A stretch of DNA of 64,000 bases. Source: Candidatus Dojkabacteria bacterium (GTDB taxonomy: Bacteria; Patescibacteriota; Dojkabacteria; SC72; JAFGCJ01). Below the pieces are notes generated by a model. It did no database searches. It was not told the DNA's origin and saw only the letters and a program-made list of their open reading frames with translations. The DNA lies in assembly GCA_016932785.1 (NCBI GenBank), contig JAFGCJ010000002.1:529777-593776 (forward strand). Direction: 5' to 3'. Position numbers and translations under genes: made by a program. This document shows positions 27,021-61,188 of this stretch, piece after piece. Positions within the stretch are counted from its first letter, which is position 1; every line of letters starts with the position of its first letter.

Positions 27021-27109
27021 TAAATACAAGTTACCTTGCAACAATTATAGCACAAAAAGATCACAGCCAACAGGACGGAGAAATAATTCTATATCGCCCT
27101 GTTGGCTGA

Positions 27110-27295
27110 TCACAGGCCCGTGAAGTCGATAATGCTGATAATACACGAGCCTACTGATGCGGCAATGAGGATAACAATGATAAACAAAATCAAAAAACCT
27201 CCCCATTCGCCTTCCTTGAAGGCCCCAGCTAGACCTTGGAACAACACCCCAAGGATCTCAAACGGAGCCTTTAAAACTCCCCACAATATTTTCAT
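27110..27295 (-). CDS. 61-aa small membrane protein
   Basis: A strong Shine-Dalgarno sequence AAAGGAGG lies 5 nt upstream of the ATG. There is one clear TM helix (GGFLILFIIVILIAASVGSCIISII). The overlapping plus-strand ORF starts with TTG and lacks an RBS. Confidence 0.6.
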   Translation of the reverse strand: MKILWGVLKAPFEILGVLFQGLAGAFKEGEWGGFLILFIIVILIAASVGSCIISIIDFTGL

Positions 27296-27413
27296 TTTTT
27301 CCTCCTTTGTGGGATAATTTTCAGCACAATTATACTATGGGACAGAAGAATATTCTACAGCCTGGAAAAGAAAAAGATTATCGTTGAAAAATGTAACTTC
27401 AACATTACTCCAG

Positions 27414-49995: not shown

Positions 49996-50931
49996 TCACC
50001 TATAAACTCTTCTTCTGAGGTCAATTCCCAAATAAAGGCCCACTACACACTGATATCCCAGTTCAGTGCTAAACATACTCAGTAATTGGTCGGGGGGAAC
50101 CCCAACCCCAAAAATATTCATTGCACAATGCCTTGATACTTCAGACAATAGCAGGACGGCCAAATCCTCACTAGGCAAGGCCATTCTCGAACACAGCACC
50201 GCCATGTGAGTAATACTCTTGTACCTACCGCTACCTTTCAGACCAGGAAAAGTTTCCACCAACCGCTCATAATCAGGCTCACTCATAACATACTTCTGCG
50301 CCACAATATCCAAAACCTCCTTCAGGGGCTCAAGCTTATCAGTTACTGGATGAATTCTAGCATCACTTTCAGCAACATCAGCTCCAACACGTGAATAGAA
50401 AAGCAGGTATCCCCATTCTCTAAGTGCTGCTATACCATCAGAATTTGCTAAATGATCAAAGACTTCAGGATCAGCCACAAGACCCAGAAGGCTACAACAA
50501 ACATCATCCACAAACCGCAAAGCATACTCTCTTCCCCTATTATTCATCTGATCAAGTTCAGCGGCTATACCCGTAACGGCTTCTAAAGCATGACCGACTC
50601 CATCATCTTCATGTAAACAGATTAGGTAAAGCAATTGATGAAATCTTCTATCTTCCGGATCTTCCTGGTTGTAACACCAAAGTCCATAAAGATATGTACC
50701 CATCCTTGAAGAAGACTCTGCTGGACTGATATGGGAAACGTCTGCCAGACCCTCAATTCCATCAACAGTGCCTGAAGGATATATTGAATATAAACCGTCC
50801 TCATTATAAATCGTAGAAGCATCAGCTTCTTTCAACCACTTCTGTTGAGTTGTCTCCCCTGATCCGATGATATCAGATGAGTGAAACCATTGCGGGCCAA
50901 GAGAGTACCCTGTCGTCTCGTTTCCTTGCAT
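49996..50931 (-). CDS. orphan protein (311 aa), mostly helical, atypical composition
   Basis: ATG start. It is rich in Gly/Leu/Asp/Arg/His/Cys and Lys-poor, with no known motif. It is flanked by unusually long non-coding regions of 390 and 852 nt. Confidence 0.65.
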   Translation of the reverse strand: MQGNETTGYSLGPQWFHSSDIIGSGETTQQKWLKEADASTIYNEDGLYSIYPSGTVDGIEGLADVSHISPAESSSRMGTYLYGLWCYNQEDPEDRRFHQLLYLICLHEDDGVGHALEAVTGIAAELDQMNNRGREYALRFVDDVCCSLLGLVADPEVFDHLANSDGIAALREWGYLLFYSRVGADVAESDARIHPVTDKLEPLKEVLDIVAQKYVMSEPDYERLVETFPGLKGSGRYKSITHMAVLCSRMALPSEDLAVLLLSEVSRHCAMNIFGVGVPPDQLLSMFSTELGYQCVVGLYLGIDLRRRVYR

Positions 50932-50938
50932 GCCCCGG

Positions 50939-50947
50939 ATTGTATCA
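50939..50947 (-). promoter_or_regulatory. extended -10 promoter TGaTACAAT exactly 7 nt upstream of the ATG at 50931 (leaderless candidate)
   Basis: The minus strand reads atatgatacaat ccggggc ATG, the same geometry as at 5732-5750. Confidence 0.4.
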
Positions 50948-51039
50948 TATTAGCCCAGTAGACTTTAACTATAAGACTTGAAACTTGTACCAGGTCTTAT
51001 TTCCAGTCTTGAAGATTACTGGCCTATAGGATATACTCT

Positions 51040-51710
51040 GTACCGAGCGGTGGGTTCCAGCGGTGCATGGGGAACGAAAAAAAAAATACAGAAAGCCGCA
51101 CTGCCATTTCAGAAGCGAAAAAAAACCAACCGAACTCACCGCTCATGCAAAAACGCCCCAGGAGAATACAGATCTTTAATGTCAACAGAGAAAACCTTTT
51201 TTCCATTGACTTCCCTGTATTCTCCTGCTTCACCCCAATTTTCAAGAATTTCCCTGATATCACGCCATTGTGGTTAGATTCCAACAAAGCTATAATTATC
51301 GTGTTTCGTGCTCTCGCGGGCTGGACCCTTGTAGAATTTGACCAATAAAACCCGCGAGGAAAAATGGAACACATCGACGTCATCTACAAGGGTTCAAAAA
51401 CAACAGCGAGGAGGAAAAAGTAACAAATCACAATTTCAAAAACTTCCCTCCTTTCTTACTCCATCTTCCTCGCTGATTTCCTCAAAATCTTTCCTTGATT
51501 TTTATAACATTATGGGATAGCATTCTTATGGGACGGCAGCCCAAGGGCATTTGCTATCCTCCTTTCGCTGTGACTCCTTCTTACAAAGGTCTTTCGTTAC
51601 AGACACCAAAAGGGGTCACAGGAAAACTACAGCAGGGAAGACAACGATTAAGGTTTGAGAAGAATGATTTTCTTTTTTTCTTTTACCTTCTTCCATCTTC
51701 CCTGCTGATA
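51040..51710 (+). ncRNA. candidate large structured RNA / structured lepA leader (unclassified)
   Basis: Eight local stems of 8-14 bp sit in a region with no credible ORF: 51045-52/51137-44, 51159-71/51215-27, 51313-20/51351-58, 51322-35/51383-96, 51404-15/51464-75, 51515-22/51552-59, 51568-79/51610-21 and 51630-41/51696-707. All non-Watson-Crick pairs are G-U on the plus strand. Confidence 0.35.
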
Positions 51711-51783
51711 CCCACTTCCTTCCAAACCCTTCCCATAATACACGTATTGACTACCTGCCATTTTTCCCCTATTCTCAACACCA

Positions 51784-53577
51784 ATGCAAAACACTAGAAA
51801 CTTTTCAATAATTGCGCATATAGACCATGGGAAATCCACTCTTTCAGATAGATTCCTGGAACTGACTGGTTTGAAGGATCCAAGTCGAGATAAATCAGAA
51901 AGAGTGCTGGACCGACTGGACCTTGAGCAAGAAAAAGGAATTACTATAAAACTCCAGCCTGTACGGATGAACTACAATGGTCACATCCTAAACCTTATCG
52001 ATACACCCGGACACGTTGATTTTTCCTACGAAGTCTCACGCTCTCTTGCCGCTTGTGAGGGCGCAATCCTTCTTGTCGACGCCTCACAGGGAGTTCAGGC
52101 ACAAACACTCTCAACCACACGTAAAGCCAAAGAGATGGGTCTCAAAATCATACCTGTCCTAAACAAAATAGACATTCCAAATATCGACATAGACAAGAGA
52201 AAAAGAGAGTTTTCAGAAATAATTGGTTTTAATGAAGATGAAATAATTCTCGCTTCAGGGAAAACAGGTGAGGGAGCAAAAGAGATTTTAGACAGAATAA
52301 TTAATGATATTCCTGCACCAGAGGGATACTCAGAAGCTCCACTACAAGCCCTTATTTTTGATTCCTTCTATCATGAACACAAGGGCGTCATTGCTGCAGT
52401 AAGAATATTCAATGGACAAATATCTGCTACTCAGAGTCAAAAACTTCACCTATTGAAAAACGGTAATAATTTCTCACCAAGAGAAATCGGGTTTTTTGAG
52501 CCTGATCTTGAAGTGACAAAGGAAATTTCTGCAGGAGAGGTTGGCTACATTGCTACCGGTGTAAAAGACATTCGGCTTTTTGCCATCGGAGATACAATTT
52601 CTGATTCTCCCAAGACCAAACCACTTCCCGGCTACAACCCTCCAAGGCCTAGGGTTTTTGCAACCCTTTTCCCATCGGATCCAGATGACTTTCATATTCT
52701 TTCCGACTCGCTCACAAAGTTAAGTATGAATGACGCAGCACTTACGGTAACACAACAAAAATCAAATATCCTAGGTTCAGGCTTCAGGTGTGGATTTCTT
52801 GGAATGCTTCACATGGAGGTTATTCAGGAGAGACTAGAACGGGAGTACGACATGTCCCTTGTAATAACGGCTCCCTCGGTCGAATACAAAGTAAAACTTA
52901 CCAACGGCGAAACGCTGAATGTCCAAACCGCCAGTGAATTTCCTGAAGTAACTCAAATACAGGAAATCAAAGAACCCTGGGTAGATGTAGAGATCTTCAC
53001 TCCACAGGAACACATGGGCCCATTGATGGAACTTTGCCAAAATAGTCGAGGAATCTACAAGGATACAGAGTACCTATCACGCTCAGAAAATTTCAAAATG
53101 GATTACATACTGCTGAAATATGAGCTTCCGTTAATGTCTATCATCACAAACTTCTTTGACAATATGAAATCTTTATCAAGTGGCTATGCTTCCCTTGAAT
53201 ATACAGAATCCGGATATAAACCCGCCGATATAGTGAAAGTAAGTATACTCGTAAACTACGACGAAGTCCCATCTCTGAGTTTTCTCGAGACAAGAGACAG
53301 AGCCGAAAACAGAGCCCGAAAAGTCTTGGAATCACTTAAAAAAACAATACCACAACACCAGTTTAAGATTGCAATTCAAGGAGCAATAGGCGGAAAAGTG
53401 ATAGCAAGAGAAAACATCAGCGCCAGAAAAAAAGATGTTACAGCAAAGCTGTATGGCGGCGATGTCACACGTAAAAAGAAACTTTGGAAGAAACAGAAAG
53501 AGGGAAAGAAGAGACTAAGAGAAATCGGCGGAGTCAATATTCCACAGGAGGCCTTCCTGTCGGTTTTGCAAAGTTGA
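51784..53577 (+). CDS. lepA: elongation factor 4 (LepA)
   Basis: NFSIIAHIDHGKSTLSDR, DTPGHVDF, NKID, and the LepA C-terminal domain with a basic tail. Confidence 0.95.
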   Translation: MQNTRNFSIIAHIDHGKSTLSDRFLELTGLKDPSRDKSERVLDRLDLEQEKGITIKLQPVRMNYNGHILNLIDTPGHVDFSYEVSRSLAACEGAILLVDASQGVQAQTLSTTRKAKEMGLKIIPVLNKIDIPNIDIDKRKREFSEIIGFNEDEIILASGKTGEGAKEILDRIINDIPAPEGYSEAPLQALIFDSFYHEHKGVIAAVRIFNGQISATQSQKLHLLKNGNNFSPREIGFFEPDLEVTKEISAGEVGYIATGVKDIRLFAIGDTISDSPKTKPLPGYNPPRPRVFATLFPSDPDDFHILSDSLTKLSMNDAALTVTQQKSNILGSGFRCGFLGMLHMEVIQERLEREYDMSLVITAPSVEYKVKLTNGETLNVQTASEFPEVTQIQEIKEPWVDVEIFTPQEHMGPLMELCQNSRGIYKDTEYLSRSENFKMDYILLKYELPLMSIITNFFDNMKSLSSGYASLEYTESGYKPADIVKVSILVNYDEVPSLSFLETRDRAENRARKVLESLKKTIPQHQFKIAIQGAIGGKVIARENISARKKDVTAKLYGGDVTRKKKLWKKQKEGKKRLREIGGVNIPQEAFLSVLQS

Positions 53578-53622: not shown

Positions 53623-54762
53623 CTATTCTTTAACTCTATGCAAAAGCTCTCGATACATTCTGTTTAGAAGACATACCCAATAGGTATCGCACAGATTTGC
53701 ACGAACTTCAGGATTGCCAAGAATTGGAACTGTTGCCTCAGCTATAGGAAAAAGTCGTCCTCCATCACAACGCAGGACATTATAGGTTGAACCAAACAGG
53801 GTAGTTCTCTTAGTTAATCTCAAAACCTGTTCAATTTCTGATCCCTGTCCTCGGATAATATCGACTCTTGAATTTCTAGAATCGACACGTCCGTCAGGGA
53901 AACATACAGTATATCCATCTGACAATTCCACCGGATACATCCTTCCTCCATAACTAAGAACTGACATGTCACCCAACATTGTCCAGAATCCTACCAGACT
54001 CTTAACAGGTTCTATTAGTACACCTGCCTCTACGTTACTCCCACAAAGTCCACTCTTCCATAGGCGAATCAACTGTCTACCTCTAATCTGTTCTATAAGA
54101 TATTTCATACCATCTTCGTATCCCCTAAGCGATCTTTCAATCCTGCGCCGAGGGTTAGAAGAATCAATAATATCAAGAACGCCTCTATAGCTGAACAGGT
54201 GACTCAGCGTTCCGCCAGATAATTTTTCGGTCGGCGGCTGATTGGTATCACCAATAACTATATGGCTTAAGCTAATCGGAGCACCGGGAAGTCCATTTTC
54301 CTGACACCATGCTACCCTCAAAGCATACCCGAGTCCTTCACAACTATCATTTTCACCTTCGGACCTTGCACCATCTTCAGGCCACCTACCCCATCCAAGT
54401 CCATCCATTCTCACATTTATTCCACCATATAAACCAGGAATTTTTATATAGAAATCAAAACCCATGGGAGATTGCCCATAAGCAACTCCATCAAAAATAG
54501 TTATCCAGCAATCTTGAAAAGTTATTACGCCAGGGCCTTCATCCTCTGCAATTTCCCTGACCAGATTCACCATCTCCAGAAGGAGTGCGTGGACAGGACA
54601 ATCCGTTCCAACCGTATCCCATATGTGCCGATCGACCTCAAAGGTATGAGTATATACTGGACCCTTATCTTTGTCAGGAGGCCTCGCGTCACCTATATCA
54701 AATGCAACCGCAGGGTCTTGAAGATCGACCCCCACTGGTACTGAACCTACAGCCAAATCCAA
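53623..54762 (-). CDS. orphan 'GFxW-module' family protein, member E (379 aa, long form, unlinked copy)
   Basis: MGFDFYIKIPG (compare D MGIEFHIRAGG), INVRMDGLGWGRWPED, and VGFWTMLGDMSVLSYGGRMYPVELSDGYTVCFPDG (compare B DGFLGFAETVAMYSGERSLTCYPDG). The ORF opens with TTG, so the start is uncertain. Confidence 0.65.
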   Translation of the reverse strand: MDLAVGSVPVGVDLQDPAVAFDIGDARPPDKDKGPVYTHTFEVDRHIWDTVGTDCPVHALLLEMVNLVREIAEDEGPGVITFQDCWITIFDGVAYGQSPMGFDFYIKIPGLYGGINVRMDGLGWGRWPEDGARSEGENDSCEGLGYALRVAWCQENGLPGAPISLSHIVIGDTNQPPTEKLSGGTLSHLFSYRGVLDIIDSSNPRRRIERSLRGYEDGMKYLIEQIRGRQLIRLWKSGLCGSNVEAGVLIEPVKSLVGFWTMLGDMSVLSYGGRMYPVELSDGYTVCFPDGRVDSRNSRVDIIRGQGSEIEQVLRLTKRTTLFGSTYNVLRCDGGRLFPIAEATVPILGNPEVRANLCDTYWVCLLNRMYRELLHRVKE

Positions 54763-56942: not shown

Positions 56943-58121
56943 ATGAAACAACACGCAGTCCCACAAGAAATTATGAGCGTTGAGTTTAAACTTTTCGGCA
57001 ACTTTCTCTCACTGCGTGAATTTATCTTCATCGCGGTTGGTCTTGCTATCGCTTATTTCATTTTCTTTCTGATGAATCAAGGGATCATACCCGGACTAAT
57101 AGCATGGCCCATGATAATACTTATCGGTGGAGGTGGAATTATTGTCGGACTGGTACCCTTCCAGGATAGAACCCTTGATAAATGGATCCTTAATTACTTC
57201 AATGCAATAAACAAACCCACCCAAAGAGTGTGGAAAAAACACGGTATTTCACCGTTTCAATCACAGACTCAGACCAGTACTCCAATTGTACGAAAAGATC
57301 ATGTTGTGAGTCCTCCGGCCCAGATCGGCTTAAAGAAAATAGAGGAACCCAAAATGACCGAACAAGAAAAGGAAACTATTACAAACTTGGACCAGGAAGA
57401 ACAACAGAAATTGCATTCTATCAAGCAAACAATAAACTCGCTAGAGAACAAAGCTCCTACGGGTACAACACCAGCTAATCAGCAAAACAATCCTCCTGTT
57501 CAATCATCACCTTCAACAACGGCAGCTGAACCACAAACCACACCAGACGGCACGGATCAGAATCCGGATATAGAGCTAAAAAAAGAACAAACTCAAGAAC
57601 AATCCCTCTCTGACCAAACCGAACAACCTACTTCACAACCTCAGTCTGAATCACAACAGGCACAGCAACCAACAACCGAGCCCGAAATCGCAGCCCAGAA
57701 TAGTAACCCGGAGACAAAAGCAACAGCTCAAACCCCAACGCAGACTGTACAGCCTCAAGCGGAGAAACCAAAATCTCAGTCACAATCCAGAGAAAGTAAG
57801 CTCACTATCACTGACGAAAACGTGAGTGAATTTGCCTCCAACGATATTACCGGGGTAGATCAAAAACCAAATACCATAAATATAGTTTTGAAAGATCAAG
57901 CAAACCAATACATCCCACAAGTTACGTGCATCATTAAAAACAGAGATGGAAACCCGGTAAGAGCTGCTGTTTCAAACCAGCTAGGACAAATAATAAATAA
58001 CATTCCACTTGAGAATGGAACATATAAAATCGAACTCTCGAAGGCTGGCTATGTCTTCCCCGAGATACTGAGAATTCTTACGGGAAAGGTATATCCGTCG
58101 ATAGAAATTAAGTCACTATAG
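56943..58121 (+). CDS. PrgI-family T4SS membrane protein fused to Gln/Pro/Thr-rich linker and CarboxypepD_reg-like beta-sandwich
   Basis: The N-terminus VPQEIMSVEFKLFGNFLSLREFIFIAVGLAIAYFIFFL plus a second TM helix is PrgI-like. The C-terminus CIIKNRDGNPVRAAVSNQLGQIINNIPLENGTYKIELSKAGY is carboxypeptidase-regulatory-like. Confidence 0.65.
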   Translation: MKQHAVPQEIMSVEFKLFGNFLSLREFIFIAVGLAIAYFIFFLMNQGIIPGLIAWPMIILIGGGGIIVGLVPFQDRTLDKWILNYFNAINKPTQRVWKKHGISPFQSQTQTSTPIVRKDHVVSPPAQIGLKKIEEPKMTEQEKETITNLDQEEQQKLHSIKQTINSLENKAPTGTTPANQQNNPPVQSSPSTTAAEPQTTPDGTDQNPDIELKKEQTQEQSLSDQTEQPTSQPQSESQQAQQPTTEPEIAAQNSNPETKATAQTPTQTVQPQAEKPKSQSQSRESKLTITDENVSEFASNDITGVDQKPNTINIVLKDQANQYIPQVTCIIKNRDGNPVRAAVSNQLGQIINNIPLENGTYKIELSKAGYVFPEILRILTGKVYPSIEIKSL

Positions 58122-58130
58122 AAACTGCCG

Positions 58131-58829
58131 ATGCCAAAACTAGAAAACCTACCACCTACACAAGAACATATAAACATAGAAAAAATTTCTGATAATCTTA
58201 TTGTCCAGAAGAATGGACTGATTTCACTTGTGCTTCAGACAACTTCAGTCAACTTCGATCTTCTTTCTGAACCAGAGCAGGATGCTAAAATTCAAGCCTT
58301 TGCACAGTTACTCAACTCCCTCACGCATTCAGTCCAGATACTTATCCGCACAAAGAAAGTTAACATTAGAAGTTATATAGACTACATCAAAGACTTTCAA
58401 AACAAACAGCTAAGTCCCGGTCTCAAGAGACAAATCGCTATCTATCTTAACTTTGTACAGAATCTGATAATCAAAAATGAGATACTTGATAAGGCTTTTT
58501 ATATTGTTGTTCCCTTTCGAGCATCCGTTGTGACCAAAACCAACCCCATGAAACAATTCCTCGGCAAAAAAGAGAAAATAACAAATCTAGACAGAATTAT
58601 GGATCAAGCCAAGGCATATTTATATCCTAAACGGGATCACATCATGAAACAACTTGTACGAATGGGACTAAGCTCACACCAACTTACAACAAAGGAGCTC
58701 ATGGAACTATTCTTTGAAATATATAATCCCGCCGCGCCGATATCACCTGAACAACAGACCTCAATTTTAGAACAACAATCTCAGATAGCTACACAATACT
58801 CTCAAAATCAACAAAATGACAGCAAGTAA
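58131..58829 (+). CDS. T4SS-associated protein resembling a stand-alone VirB4/TraC N-terminal domain (tentative)
   Basis: 232 aa. IEKISDNLIVQKNGLISLVLQTTSVNFDLLSEPEQDAKIQAFAQLLNSL recalls the N-terminal region of Gram-positive VirB4 homologues. It overlaps the VirB4 gene by 14 nt. Confidence 0.45.
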   Translation: MPKLENLPPTQEHINIEKISDNLIVQKNGLISLVLQTTSVNFDLLSEPEQDAKIQAFAQLLNSLTHSVQILIRTKKVNIRSYIDYIKDFQNKQLSPGLKRQIAIYLNFVQNLIIKNEILDKAFYIVVPFRASVVTKTNPMKQFLGKKEKITNLDRIMDQAKAYLYPKRDHIMKQLVRMGLSSHQLTTKELMELFFEIYNPAAPISPEQQTSILEQQSQIATQYSQNQQNDSK

Positions 58830-61188
58830 TAACCCACAGCAAAATACCACACCTCAGAGCAGTCAAAACCCTGAACCACAAATTACATCCCCCAATTCGG
58901 AGGGTCACGCAACACCGGCACATTTTACCTTTCCTCAACAGAATCCTGAAACGGACATGCTACCGTCAGCAGGACAACCAATGAGCCAAAATCAAGAATC
59001 CCAGCAGAGTCTTCAGCCCCAACAGGCAGCTCCCAAGAAAAAGTTAAGCCTTGCAGACGCACTGTTTGGGGGATTCAAGCTTCTTGGTAAAAAGAAACCA
59101 GCTAAAACCCCTCAACAGAGAACTCAGATTTCCTCCACGGGAAAGCAAATTAATCAACCACAACAGACATCTCAACAACCCAAAACACAAAAGTCAACCG
59201 GGTTGCTGGGCGGACTCCTCGGCGGGTTCAAGCTTTTTGGAAAGAAATCACCATCAAGCCAAACCCCACCAGCTTCACAGACTACCCAAACTGGTATAAC
59301 AGGACAACCGGAGACACCAGACATGACATTTCAAGATATCATTGCTCCTCCCTCACTCGAGGTAGATTTTAATAATATCCAAATTGGAACCCGATACTAC
59401 CTTGTTCTGTTTGCATCAGGATATCCAAGATTCGTTGGTCCTAACTGGCTTTCTCCCTTAATCAACTTCGAGCACTCTCTCATGATCAGTACTTTTTACT
59501 ATCCTGTAGATTCAAAAGATATTCTGCAGAAGCTTAAGAGGAAAATCAGTGAGATGGAAGCATCAGTATATGGAGATGTTGAAAAAGGCAAAGTTCTCGA
59601 TCCGAGCCTAAAGATTGCACTCAGTGACGCACAGCAGCTTCAGGAATCGATTGCGGCCGGAACCGAGAAGTTTTTCCATTTTTCGATGTATATAACCATC
59701 AATGCCGAAAGTAAAAAACAACTCGACAGAATAGCCAAAAATGTCATTTCTACACTGGCGGCTATTAATGTTGTAGCAAAACCTGCAACACTTCAAATGG
59801 AACAAGCTTTTTATAGTACTCTACCGACAGCAGACGACCAGCTTTACATTACAAGAAACATGGACACCACGTCCCTTGCCACCACATTCCCGTTTGTTAC
59901 CTCAGAGCTAACTATGGATCACGGAGTAATGTTTGGTCTCAACCTCCACAATAGAAGCCTTATTATCTTCGATAGATTCGAAATGGAGAATGCAAACTCA
60001 GTGATCTTTGCTAAATCTGGGGCAGGAAAGAGCTACCTGGTGAAACTTGAGGCTTTGCGCAGCTTAATGCTTGGTACGGAAGTCATCATAATTGATCCGG
60101 AAAAAGAATTCGAACGTTTGTGCGAAGCGGTAAATGGTGCATACATAACGTTTTCACAGGACAAAGGAAGCAAAGTCAATCCCTTTGAACTGTCCGGTCT
60201 TGCTAATTCAGAAGAAGATGAACTAAGAATGAAAATTCTCTCACTACACGGTTTCTTTAAGGTCATATTTGGAGGCCTCACCAACATTGAAAGTTCAATC
60301 CTTGATCGAGCCTTGATCTTAACTTACAGAGAAAAGGGAATTACAACTGATCCTGACACACAGAAAAACGCTGATTTTCCACTGCTCGAGGATTTATACA
60401 AAATACTTCAGGGAATGGCTGAACTCGAAGGAAGAGAATTAGCCAAGCGCCTCGAAAAATACATAATAGGAAGTGCCGCAGGAGTATTCAACGAGAAGAG
60501 TAATGTAGAAATAACGAACCCTTTTACAGTCTTCAGCCTACGAGATCTTCAGGAGGAGCTACGACCAATGGCAATGTACCTCATGCTCGACTACATCTGG
60601 ACCAAAATTAAAAAAGATCAGAAAAAACGCCTACTGCTTGTCGATGAGGCATGGCTGATGATGCAAAATGAGGACTCGGCAAAGTTTATTTATTCCATAG
60701 CAAAGAGGGCCCGTAAGTACTATCTTGGTCTCACAACAATAACTCAGGATGTAGAAGACTTTCTATCCAGTGACTATGGAAAAGCAATAGTTACTAACTC
60801 CTCTATACAAATCTTACTGAAGCAAAGTACAGCCGCAATCGAGCGAATCCAAAAGGTATTCAATCTTTCAGACGGCGAAAAGAACTTCCTTCTTTCGTGT
60901 GGAATAGGTGAAGGTCTGTTCTTTGCGGGAGCGAACCATGTTGCCATCAAAGTCATTTCAAGCATTGGCGAACACCTACTTATCACCTCTAACCCAAGAG
61001 AAGTCGAGATGATGAAGAAAGCCGGAATAAGCATTGACGAGAAGGAAATAACTGAGCTTTCATCGGTTTTCGATCCACTAGCTACTCAAAAGGATCTTAA
61101 TACAAGAATTCAGCAAGTAACCACTACACAGGAAAATGCTGTCCCTTCAAAACCTACGGCCGAAAATAATAACATTGGCATTCAGTAA
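58816..61188 (+). CDS. VirB4-family type IV secretion ATPase with 170-aa Gln/Pro-rich N-terminal extension
   Basis: Walker A FAKSGAGKSYLVK and Walker B LLLVDEAWLMM, with TTITQDVEDF downstream. The N-terminal extension carries the duplicated motif GGFKL(L/F)GKK. Confidence 0.85.
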   Translation: MTASNNPQQNTTPQSSQNPEPQITSPNSEGHATPAHFTFPQQNPETDMLPSAGQPMSQNQESQQSLQPQQAAPKKKLSLADALFGGFKLLGKKKPAKTPQQRTQISSTGKQINQPQQTSQQPKTQKSTGLLGGLLGGFKLFGKKSPSSQTPPASQTTQTGITGQPETPDMTFQDIIAPPSLEVDFNNIQIGTRYYLVLFASGYPRFVGPNWLSPLINFEHSLMISTFYYPVDSKDILQKLKRKISEMEASVYGDVEKGKVLDPSLKIALSDAQQLQESIAAGTEKFFHFSMYITINAESKKQLDRIAKNVISTLAAINVVAKPATLQMEQAFYSTLPTADDQLYITRNMDTTSLATTFPFVTSELTMDHGVMFGLNLHNRSLIIFDRFEMENANSVIFAKSGAGKSYLVKLEALRSLMLGTEVIIIDPEKEFERLCEAVNGAYITFSQDKGSKVNPFELSGLANSEEDELRMKILSLHGFFKVIFGGLTNIESSILDRALILTYREKGITTDPDTQKNADFPLLEDLYKILQGMAELEGRELAKRLEKYIIGSAAGVFNEKSNVEITNPFTVFSLRDLQEELRPMAMYLMLDYIWTKIKKDQKKRLLLVDEAWLMMQNEDSAKFIYSIAKRARKYYLGLTTITQDVEDFLSSDYGKAIVTNSSIQILLKQSTAAIERIQKVFNLSDGEKNFLLSCGIGEGLFFAGANHVAIKVISSIGEHLLITSNPREVEMMKKAGISIDEKEITELSSVFDPLATQKDLNTRIQQVTTTQENAVPSKPTAENNNIGIQ

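Follow-up and report, generated by a model that had tools for sequence, protein, structure and literature searches.

Within the 64-kb stretch of Candidatus Dojkabacteria DNA analysed here as a whole (contig JAFGCJ010000002.1, positions 529,777 to 593,776; hereafter, the window), the gene callers placed no gene at positions 50932-51783, a gap of 852 nt bounded by a minus-strand ORFan of 311 amino acids (aa) at 49996..50931 and by the plus-strand gene lepA (elongation factor 4) at 51784..53577. This is the largest spacing among the listed open reading frames (ORFs) of at least 120 aa in the window, and its GC content (0.42-0.44) is the same as that of coding DNA, not lower. The gap was found to consist of a chain of seven long hairpins, here called HP1, X1, Y1, X2, Y2, X3, and Y3 in their order toward lepA. 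The downstream gene carries the Pfam domains GTP_EFTU, EFG_C, and LepA_C, and its product was 100% identical to an NCBI protein of Candidatus Dojkabacteria (WS6, candidate phyla radiation, CPR), the next relatives showing 75-77% identity. The ORFan, which is transcribed divergently from the hairpin array, matched only itself in the protein collections.

The original prediction for this locus had described two paralogous hairpin modules, and both were confirmed in the sequence exactly where they had been placed. Module 1 pairs CAGCGAGGAGGA (51404-51415) with TCTTCCTCGCTG (51464-51475) in a 12-bp stem that includes a G-U at stem position 10 and encloses a 48-nt interior, and module 2 pairs CAGCAGGGAAGA (51630-51641) with TCTTCCCTGCTG (51696-51707) through 12 Watson-Crick pairs around a 54-nt interior. 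The direct repeat of 17 nt holding both 3' arms (51461-77 and 51693-709) matches at 15 of 17 positions and extends to 23 nt, with 19 of 23 (83%) identical. As had been claimed, the loops do not align with each other, to which we add that each of them forms further upper stems. The view of the locus as a pair of modules proved too narrow, as the two correspond to Y2 in unit 2 and Y3 in unit 3, two of seven hairpins in a tandem array of three units.

Six uninterrupted stems of at least 12 bp (Watson-Crick and G-U pairs, with interiors of 30-74 nt) were counted in the gap, whereas its dinucleotide shuffles averaged 0.29 and never exceeded 3, none of the 400 reaching six. Such basal stems of 12-14 bp (G-U counted) are carried by all the hairpins but HP1. 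The plus strand of the whole gap folds at -247 kcal/mol, versus -182 +/- 6.6 kcal/mol for the shuffles (z = -9.9), and the minus strand gives z = -3.3. Taken one by one, the hairpins reach z from -3.9 to -8.1 on the plus strand and from -1.8 to -6.4 on the minus strand, each of them individually significant, and the fold z of the three spacers is not significant. Moreover, perfect inverted repeats (at least 10 bp, loops of up to 90 nt) number only eight in the window, and the gap holds three of these, the two longest among them. The hairpins are far beyond chance.

From Y1 onward, the Y hairpins are spaced 245 nt and then 226 nt apart, which defines approximately three tandem units of 226-245 nt, each consisting of an X hairpin, an A-rich linker with AAAAC, a Y hairpin (CAG...CTG), and a pyrimidine-rich spacer. 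In unit 1, X1 (51045..51144) has a 13-bp basal stem with one G-U and a branched interior of 74 nt (z = -4.0 on the plus and -1.8 on the minus strand), and it is followed by the linker CAAAAACGCCC and by Y1 (51159..51227), a perfect 13-bp stem of CAGGAGAATACAG and CTGTATTCTCCTG (z = -6.3 and -6.4). Spacer S1 (51228..51321) is unstructured (z = +0.3) and CU-rich (TTTCCCTGAT), with collinear similarity to S2 and S3. Unit 2 continues with X2 (51322..51396), a 14-bp basal stem with one G-U around 47 nt (z = -3.9 and -3.2), the linker AAAACAA, and Y2 (51404..51475), with upper stems AGUAA/UUACU and AAA/UUU (z = -6.0 and -3.5). Its spacer S2 (51476..51562, z = -1.95) is also CU-rich (TTTCCTTGAT) and contains a small hairpin and a local 16-nt duplication, TTATGGGATAGCA/TTATGGGACGGCA. 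Unit 3 comprises X3 (51563..51625), a 12-bp stem with one U-G and a 4-bp extension (z = -4.3 and -4.9), the linker GAAAACTA, the perfect Y3 (51630..51707), with upper stems of 2, 5, and 8 bp (-34.1 kcal/mol; z = -8.1 and -6.2), and the unstructured CU-rich (CTTCCCATAAT) spacer S3 (51708..51783, z = +0.4).

Some alternative pairings were noticed in unit 2, where CTCGCGGG (51313-20) can pair with CCCGCGAG (51351-58), and GCGAGGAA (51353-61), a copy lying in the X2 loop, can also pair with the 3' arm of Y2 (region 51466-51479). The X2 loop thus contains a partial copy of the linker plus the Y 5' arm, and these pairings could represent either a switch or merely a trace of duplication.

Outside the units, HP1 (50936..51040) is an imperfect long hairpin of 105 nt on the plus strand, located beside the start of the ORFan (minimum free energy -32.8 kcal/mol; z = -4.6 and -3.2) and overlapping the promoter-like box P0 (TTGAAG-17-TATACT, 51009..51037). 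The inverted-repeat and helix lists show within it a 10-bp palindrome, ATAAGACTTG/CAGGTCTTAT (50971-80 and 50991-51000, with 10 nt between the arms), which has the ORFan's -10-like box on one side and the plus-strand box P0 on the other, and which resembles an operator of a divergent promoter region.

The paralogy of the two modules extends far past the 17-mer. Local alignment of units 2 and 3 joined 51387-51500 to 51609-51740, covering the X 3' arm, the linker, the Y hairpin, and the start of the spacer (~115-130 nt), with a score of 54 compared with 24.4 +/- 4.1 (maximum 38) in shuffles, none of 300 scoring as high. A search with nhmmer gave an expectation value (E) of 0.0017, and of 0.031 in the reciprocal direction. 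Units 2 and 3 are thus clearly homologous. Unit 1 aligned collinearly with both other units (P = 0.033 and 0.067), and a covariance model built on Y2 and Y3 found as its best non-self plus-strand match the linker and Y1 of unit 1 (51148-51232; 18.3 bits, E = 0.13 over 182 kb). For these comparisons, local alignment and a covariance model restricted to the Y hairpins were used, as whole-unit MAFFT alignment mis-registered the stems. Unit 1 is thus a probable third, more diverged copy, and the array grew by tandem duplication of a two-hairpin unit of ~226-245 nt. The search for further copies that had been proposed with the original prediction therefore recovered a probable one, Y1, whose perfect 13-bp helix provides no instance of a non-compensatory stem change, and it recovered none elsewhere in the window or in the collections scanned (see below).

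Comparison of the duplicated stems revealed how their pairing had been kept. The 12 pairs of Y2 and Y3 include nine invariant ones, one changed on one side (G-U/A-U), and two adjacent ones changed on both sides, as the original prediction had reported. The arms are identical at 19 of 24 positions (~79%), compared with ~37% in the loop centres, which is near random for the composition, and the flanking AAAAC.A, CCA, and AU are conserved as well. X2 and X3 share a 9-bp core (TGGACCCTT/AAGGGTTCA in X2, TGACTCCTT/AAGGGGTCA in X3), with 3' arms that align and with one double change (A-U to C-G), two one-sided changes via G-U, and none that is disruptive. Together, the 21 pairs common to the X and Y stems of units 2 and 3 comprise 15 unchanged, three doubly compensated, three G-U-compatible, and no broken pairs. 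When any substitution was allowed and the changes were scattered independently in simulations, all pairs survived with a probability of 0.003 for Y and 0.005 for X; a shuffle control of the Y2/Y3 pair counts was uninformative (131/500). Clearly, some process that preserves pairing has operated; the more likely one is selection on the helix, given the conservation of the arms between paralogues whose loops have decayed. The pairing kept while the loop centres decayed agrees with what had been proposed, but to call it direct evidence of selection on the helix was an overstatement for a comparison of two sequences.

The stems also differ between strands. Five of them (HP1, X1, X2, Y2, and X3) contain a single interruption in the basal stem, in all cases G-T on the plus strand and A-C on the minus strand, none being of the reverse type and none a transversion mismatch. 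When the same criterion of at least 12 bp was applied to the minus strand, only Y1 and Y3 remained, and the fold z was clearly better on the plus strand for five of the seven hairpins. The plus strand is therefore favoured, with moderate confidence.

Sites for transcription were searched too. A consensus scan detected three promoter-like sites in the gap, all on the plus strand, a further point in favour of that strand. One of them, P0, precedes unit 1, with a predicted start at ~51044-45, that is, at the first base of X1; another, P3 (TTGACT-17-TATTCT, 51747-75), lies in S3 before lepA. A further box in S1, before unit 2, was recognised by eye (TTGTGG at 51268-73, 17 nt, TATAAT at 51291-96) and was not listed by the scan, as its -35 box has only 3 of 6 matches. 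No convincing box precedes unit 3. Immediately after the Y hairpins come AUUUCC or AUACCC and no U-run.

The array is best read as an undescribed, lineage-specific structured RNA. That its plus strand is transcribed, into either a single long structured non-coding RNA or several of them, is the explanation we prefer, and we would place its probability just short of even. Transcription would begin at P0, near 51044 at the first base of X1, and possibly also at the S1 box, and the helices would be the selected feature of the RNA product. Such transcripts would cross the lepA promoter, because there is no intrinsic terminator between the array and lepA, and this gene has its own -10-like box. In trans, the RNA could serve as a stable double-stranded scaffold or as a decoy for a protein or RNase; alternatively, in cis, read-through might occlude the leaderless lepA promoter and so modulate lepA. 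A bolder version, which we consider decidedly unlikely, is that the array would be the first example seen of a new type of large (~0.7 kb) multi-hairpin non-coding RNA in CPR bacteria, one that grows as its two-hairpin unit is tandemly duplicated and that is retained for its double-stranded helices. It might act as a scaffold or decoy for an RNA-binding protein or RNase, or through read-through that tunes a leaderless promoter.

Several points weigh against transcription as structured RNA. The three sites of the consensus scan are not above the 1.8 +/- 1.4 expected from shuffles, and no terminator-like site was found in 50800-51900, after any unit, even though ordinary terminators exist elsewhere in the window (for example, 27064-27108). 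The membership of unit 1 is marginal, as it was not significant by nhmmer and reached only E = 0.13 with the covariance model. The covariation comparison rests on two or three paralogues in one genome, with no homologue found elsewhere, and a simulation restricted to transitions kept all 12 Y pairs canonical with P = 0.12. The summed energies of the seven hairpins are nearly equal on both strands (-194 kcal/mol on plus, -188 kcal/mol on minus), and the A-rich 5' and C-rich 3' flanks of Y2 and Y3, with their A-C juxtapositions, would add G-U pairs on the minus strand. Finally, template-switch mutation could be an alternative source of adjacent double compensation, since a single template-switch event during replication can produce multibase adjacent compensatory changes with no selection on intermediates (PMC8794818).

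This last point leads to a serious, if unlikely, alternative, namely that the array consists of DNA-level quasi-palindromes, tandemly duplicated and made or repaired by template switching, which would have no RNA role and would be neutral, DNA structures, or protein sites in a divergent promoter region. The compensated Y pairs are indeed adjacent (GA/TC to AG/CT), the type of multibase change that has been ascribed to template switching (PMC8794818), both strands give significant stems of similar absolute energy, and the gap occupies a hypervariable slot, different in every relative, next to an ORFan. However, switching yields perfect Watson-Crick repeats, which leaves the five all-G-T interruptions of the plus strand unexplained, as it does the ~79% likeness of paralogous arms around randomised loops. 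In addition, operators do not typically have arms of 12-14 bp set 30-74 bp apart, and 850 nt of neutral DNA would be unexpected where other gaps are much shorter.

The points concerning strand bear on a different alternative, an RNA transcribed from the minus strand toward the 311-aa ORFan, either as a long leader or as a protein-paired repeat RNA loosely resembling a type III toxin-antitoxin system, which we hold to be very doubtful. The array lies directly upstream of the ORFan in the same direction, the hairpins still fold on that strand with z from -1.8 to -6.4, equally well or better for Y1 and X3, and the A-C juxtapositions beside Y2 and Y3 become G-U pairs, by which Y3 lengthens to 15 bp. 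Nevertheless, four of the six basal stems are broken there by C-A, the whole-gap fold falls to z = -3.3 versus -9.9, and the consensus scan gave no promoter-like site on the minus strand of the gap. The ORFan has its own -10-like box (TACAAT), 7 nt before its ATG, and matches no defence or toxin model, and the diverged units of ~235 nt do not resemble near-identical repeats of ~35 nt. A ToxI/ToxN-like system was rejected for similar reasons, as the units are 226-245 nt long and diverged, and as a same-strand layout would be possible only with the minus-strand ORFan, for which no PADLOC, Pfam, or NCBIfam match exists.

The plus-strand RNA reading was also weighed against a decayed or frameshifted coding gene, or a set of small ORFs, in which the hairpins would be incidental. 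The gap does contain plus-strand stop-free runs of 111, 102, and 100 codons, with a summed length that is uncommon in shuffles (P = 0.013), and a minus-strand run of 119 codons (P = 0.029). The longest single run is, however, unremarkable (P = 0.155), and none of the seven ORFs of the gap has a Pfam match. Neither the 245- and 226-nt distances from unit to unit nor the indels that distinguish them are divisible by three; in the conserved 3' arm, it is the first and second codon positions that differ and not the third, and decay of a gene would leave unexplained the z of -9.9 and the six stems of at least 12 bp. With no codon-phase signal, and with small ORFs that are unconserved between units, a coding region or pseudogene was rejected, and this explanation is highly improbable.

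Equally improbable is a conserved cis-regulatory leader of lepA, riboswitch or attenuator, as suggested by the position of the array directly upstream of this gene on the same strand, by the pairing of GCGAGGAA with the Y2 3' arm, and by the long gaps (572 and 767 nt) that precede lepA in two relatives as well. Against it, the array is absent upstream of lepA in six relatives whose LepA proteins are 71-77% identical, and their upstream sequences showed no similarity to it by nhmmer or covariance model. In the loci compared (L002-L005 and L066-L068), the gaps before lepA measured 120, 572, 82, 252, 102, and 767 nt, while one locus has a kinase gene immediately before lepA, with almost no gap. 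Rfam matched nothing in the array, nor in the lepA loci of five relatives. Furthermore, lepA has its own -10-like box, TATTCT of P3, ending 8 nt before its ATG, which is the usual pattern for genes here, and it has no need of the array as a leader. In the regions upstream of 47 ORFs of the window, almost no Shine-Dalgarno motifs were found, and many start codons lie 7-10 nt after a TATAAT-like box, which suggests that leaderless or very short-leader mRNAs are widespread in this genome. Because of this scarcity of motifs, the GGAGG-like and CCUCC-like arms of the stems should not be taken for mimics of ribosome-binding sites, and a Shine-Dalgarno/anti-Shine-Dalgarno reading of them was discarded.

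One of the relatives (locus L068, LepA 71% identical) showed a gap of its own before lepA, the 767-nt one (1734-2500), equally uncalled and with a fold z of -6.1. It contains a perfect 16-bp hairpin (2411-2450) and perhaps also an ORF of 70 aa, for which GAGGAGG at 1844 resembles a Shine-Dalgarno motif. This gap had no Rfam match and is not homologous to the array of the window.

Relatives of the array were sought more broadly. Over the window, Rfam 15 (4227 models) found only two tRNA-Ser genes reaching the gathering threshold, and when E values of up to 10 were accepted for 50800-51900, only spurious microRNA and snoRNA models appeared, with 14-22 bits versus thresholds of 38-135 bits. No further copy of the array was detected in the window by pattern, nhmmer, or covariance model. 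A pattern scan of 596 Gb of representative genomes, from which the source genome is evidently absent, gave 16 matches, which were unrelated palindromes or chance, none from CPR. In metagenome contigs, the strict pattern had no matches and the loose one 44, none of them (0/44) complementary; the pattern scan of viral contigs had no matches either, and BLAST against phages returned none.

These results also bear on the explanation to which we give almost no credence, that the hairpins are copies of a miniature inverted-repeat transposable element (MITE) or of a REPIN-like mobile element. In form, every hairpin consists of two inverted repeats of 12-14 bp that flank 30-74 bp, and three of the hairpins begin with CAG and end with CTG. 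However, no other copies were found in any of the collections above, the copies are collinear, in the same orientation and inside a longer duplicated unit, and the flanks show no target-site duplication (AAAACAA|...|ATTTCCT and AAAACTA|...|ATACCCA, with no direct repeat). The signs of a mobile repeat that could have undermined the original prediction were thus not found, and taken as a whole, its interpretation is partly supported.

Other identities were considered and rejected. Integron attC sites are not supported, as the stem ends (CAGC...GCTG, GAGCGG...CCGCTC, and TGGACC...GGTTCA) are unlike R'' (RYYYAAC) and R' (GTTRRRY), and the hairpins are not separated by cassette ORFs. Neither GGA (13 vs. 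12.6 expected) nor TCC (22 vs. 18.8) is enriched as in a CsrA sponge, the only enriched short motif being CTTCC (8 vs. 1.9), which is partly due to paralogy. A replication origin is not indicated by the cumulative GC skew, which is monotonic over the window with no turn, and a set of terminators was discarded, as none is predicted in the gap.

Regarding the neighbouring genes, the ORFan had no homologue in genome contigs, 5.8 billion proteins, or 1.84 billion cluster representatives, nor any match in Pfam, PHROG, PADLOC, or NCBIfam, and its AlphaFold model was all-helical but poor (predicted local distance difference test, pLDDT, of 45), too poor for a structure search. On both sides, lepA is flanked by minus-strand ORFs with no family matches, the second one being an ORF of 379 aa (53623-54762) with no match in Pfam, PHROGs, PADLOC, and NCBIfam, the only collections in which it was checked. 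In the relatives, the slots just upstream and just downstream of lepA hold different genes, whereas the surrounding order is otherwise kept, with a pair of 183-189-aa genes upstream and a RecF-like ATPase, a 280-aa gene, and PrgI downstream; therefore, both slots adjacent to lepA are variable. Farther downstream of lepA and the RecF-like ATPase, at 56943-61188, lies a cluster that carries PrgI and TraC-like genes in relatives, and in which a 232-aa ORF shows weak matches to VirB4 and TrsD; as it is syntenic in relatives, this cluster belongs to the core chromosome and not to a mobile island.

Two more features were noticed elsewhere in the window. Beside tRNA-Ser(tga), at 655-795, four copies of an 11-mer, GGGTCAGACC(CC) or GGTCTGACCCC, are found in both orientations around an A-rich stretch of ~90 nt; they may represent iterons, a remnant attachment site, or a segment that can invert. 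In addition, the gap at 27064-27300 has a strong fold signal (z about -9), because an ordinary minus-strand terminator, an 11-bp hairpin followed by a T-run (27064-27108), and a small ORF are located there. This terminator follows a minus-strand, membrane-like ORF at ~27113-27296, which falls below the listing limit of 120 aa.

In conclusion, the array is a structural peculiarity with good support, found in a lineage of which little is known, and it matches no curated family. CPR bacteria have tiny, gene-dense genomes, and to our knowledge almost nothing is known of their regulatory RNAs; an 850-nt gene-free chain of hairpins beside a translation factor gene of the essential type is hard to dismiss as filler. 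Its duplicated units provide an internal comparison, which shows pairing kept through change where no other genome is comparable. If transcribed, the array would be an accessible example of the birth of a structured RNA by duplication, with stems maintained by selection or template switching, and if not, a clean natural case of palindrome maintenance of the template-switch type in a streamlined genome. Either way, it is so far an orphan of a single genome, so its general importance is limited.

Among known systems, the quasi-palindromes produced by template switching (PMC8794818) share with the array the perfect or near-perfect inverted repeats and the multibase compensation of adjacent pairs, but they reflect a mutational mechanism and not a functional class, and they predict neither the plus-strand G-T bias nor the conservation of the arms. 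REPIN, BIME, and MITE elements are likewise intergenic clusters of imperfect palindromes of ~70-100 bp; in contrast to them, the array belongs to no dispersed family that was found, has no target-site duplications, and keeps its copies within a longer collinear unit. The large Rfam RNAs OLE, GOLLD, ROOL, and raiA are similar in being intergenic and multi-helix, several hundred nt long, with a GC content as high as that of coding DNA, but they have a conserved multi-junction fold, whereas the array matches no Rfam model and is a linear chain of duplicated hairpins in a single genome.

The closest known systems in kind, by our comparison, are the tandem arrays of small-RNA genes of the NsiR1 type, to which LhrC1-4 of Listeria and PrrF1/PrrF2 of Pseudomonas are similar. 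In heterocystous cyanobacteria, 12 copies of NsiR1 lie in tandem close to hetF, and every copy has a promoter of its own (PMC4030482). The NsiR1 units are ~60 nt long, whereas those described here, with 226-245 nt and two long hairpins, are about four times longer. In contrast to such arrays, intrinsic terminators are missing from the ends of the units here, no convincing promoter was seen for unit 3, the array is known from DNA sequence in one genome, and the logic of a CU-rich anti-Shine-Dalgarno seed is inapplicable because the genome is almost devoid of Shine-Dalgarno motifs. As in them, however, direct tandem, hairpin-bearing non-coding units (units 2 and 3, with unit 1 as a marginal member) are gathered in a single intergenic region ahead of a protein-coding gene, the spacers repeatedly show promoter-like boxes, and the units have diverged while their hairpins were kept.

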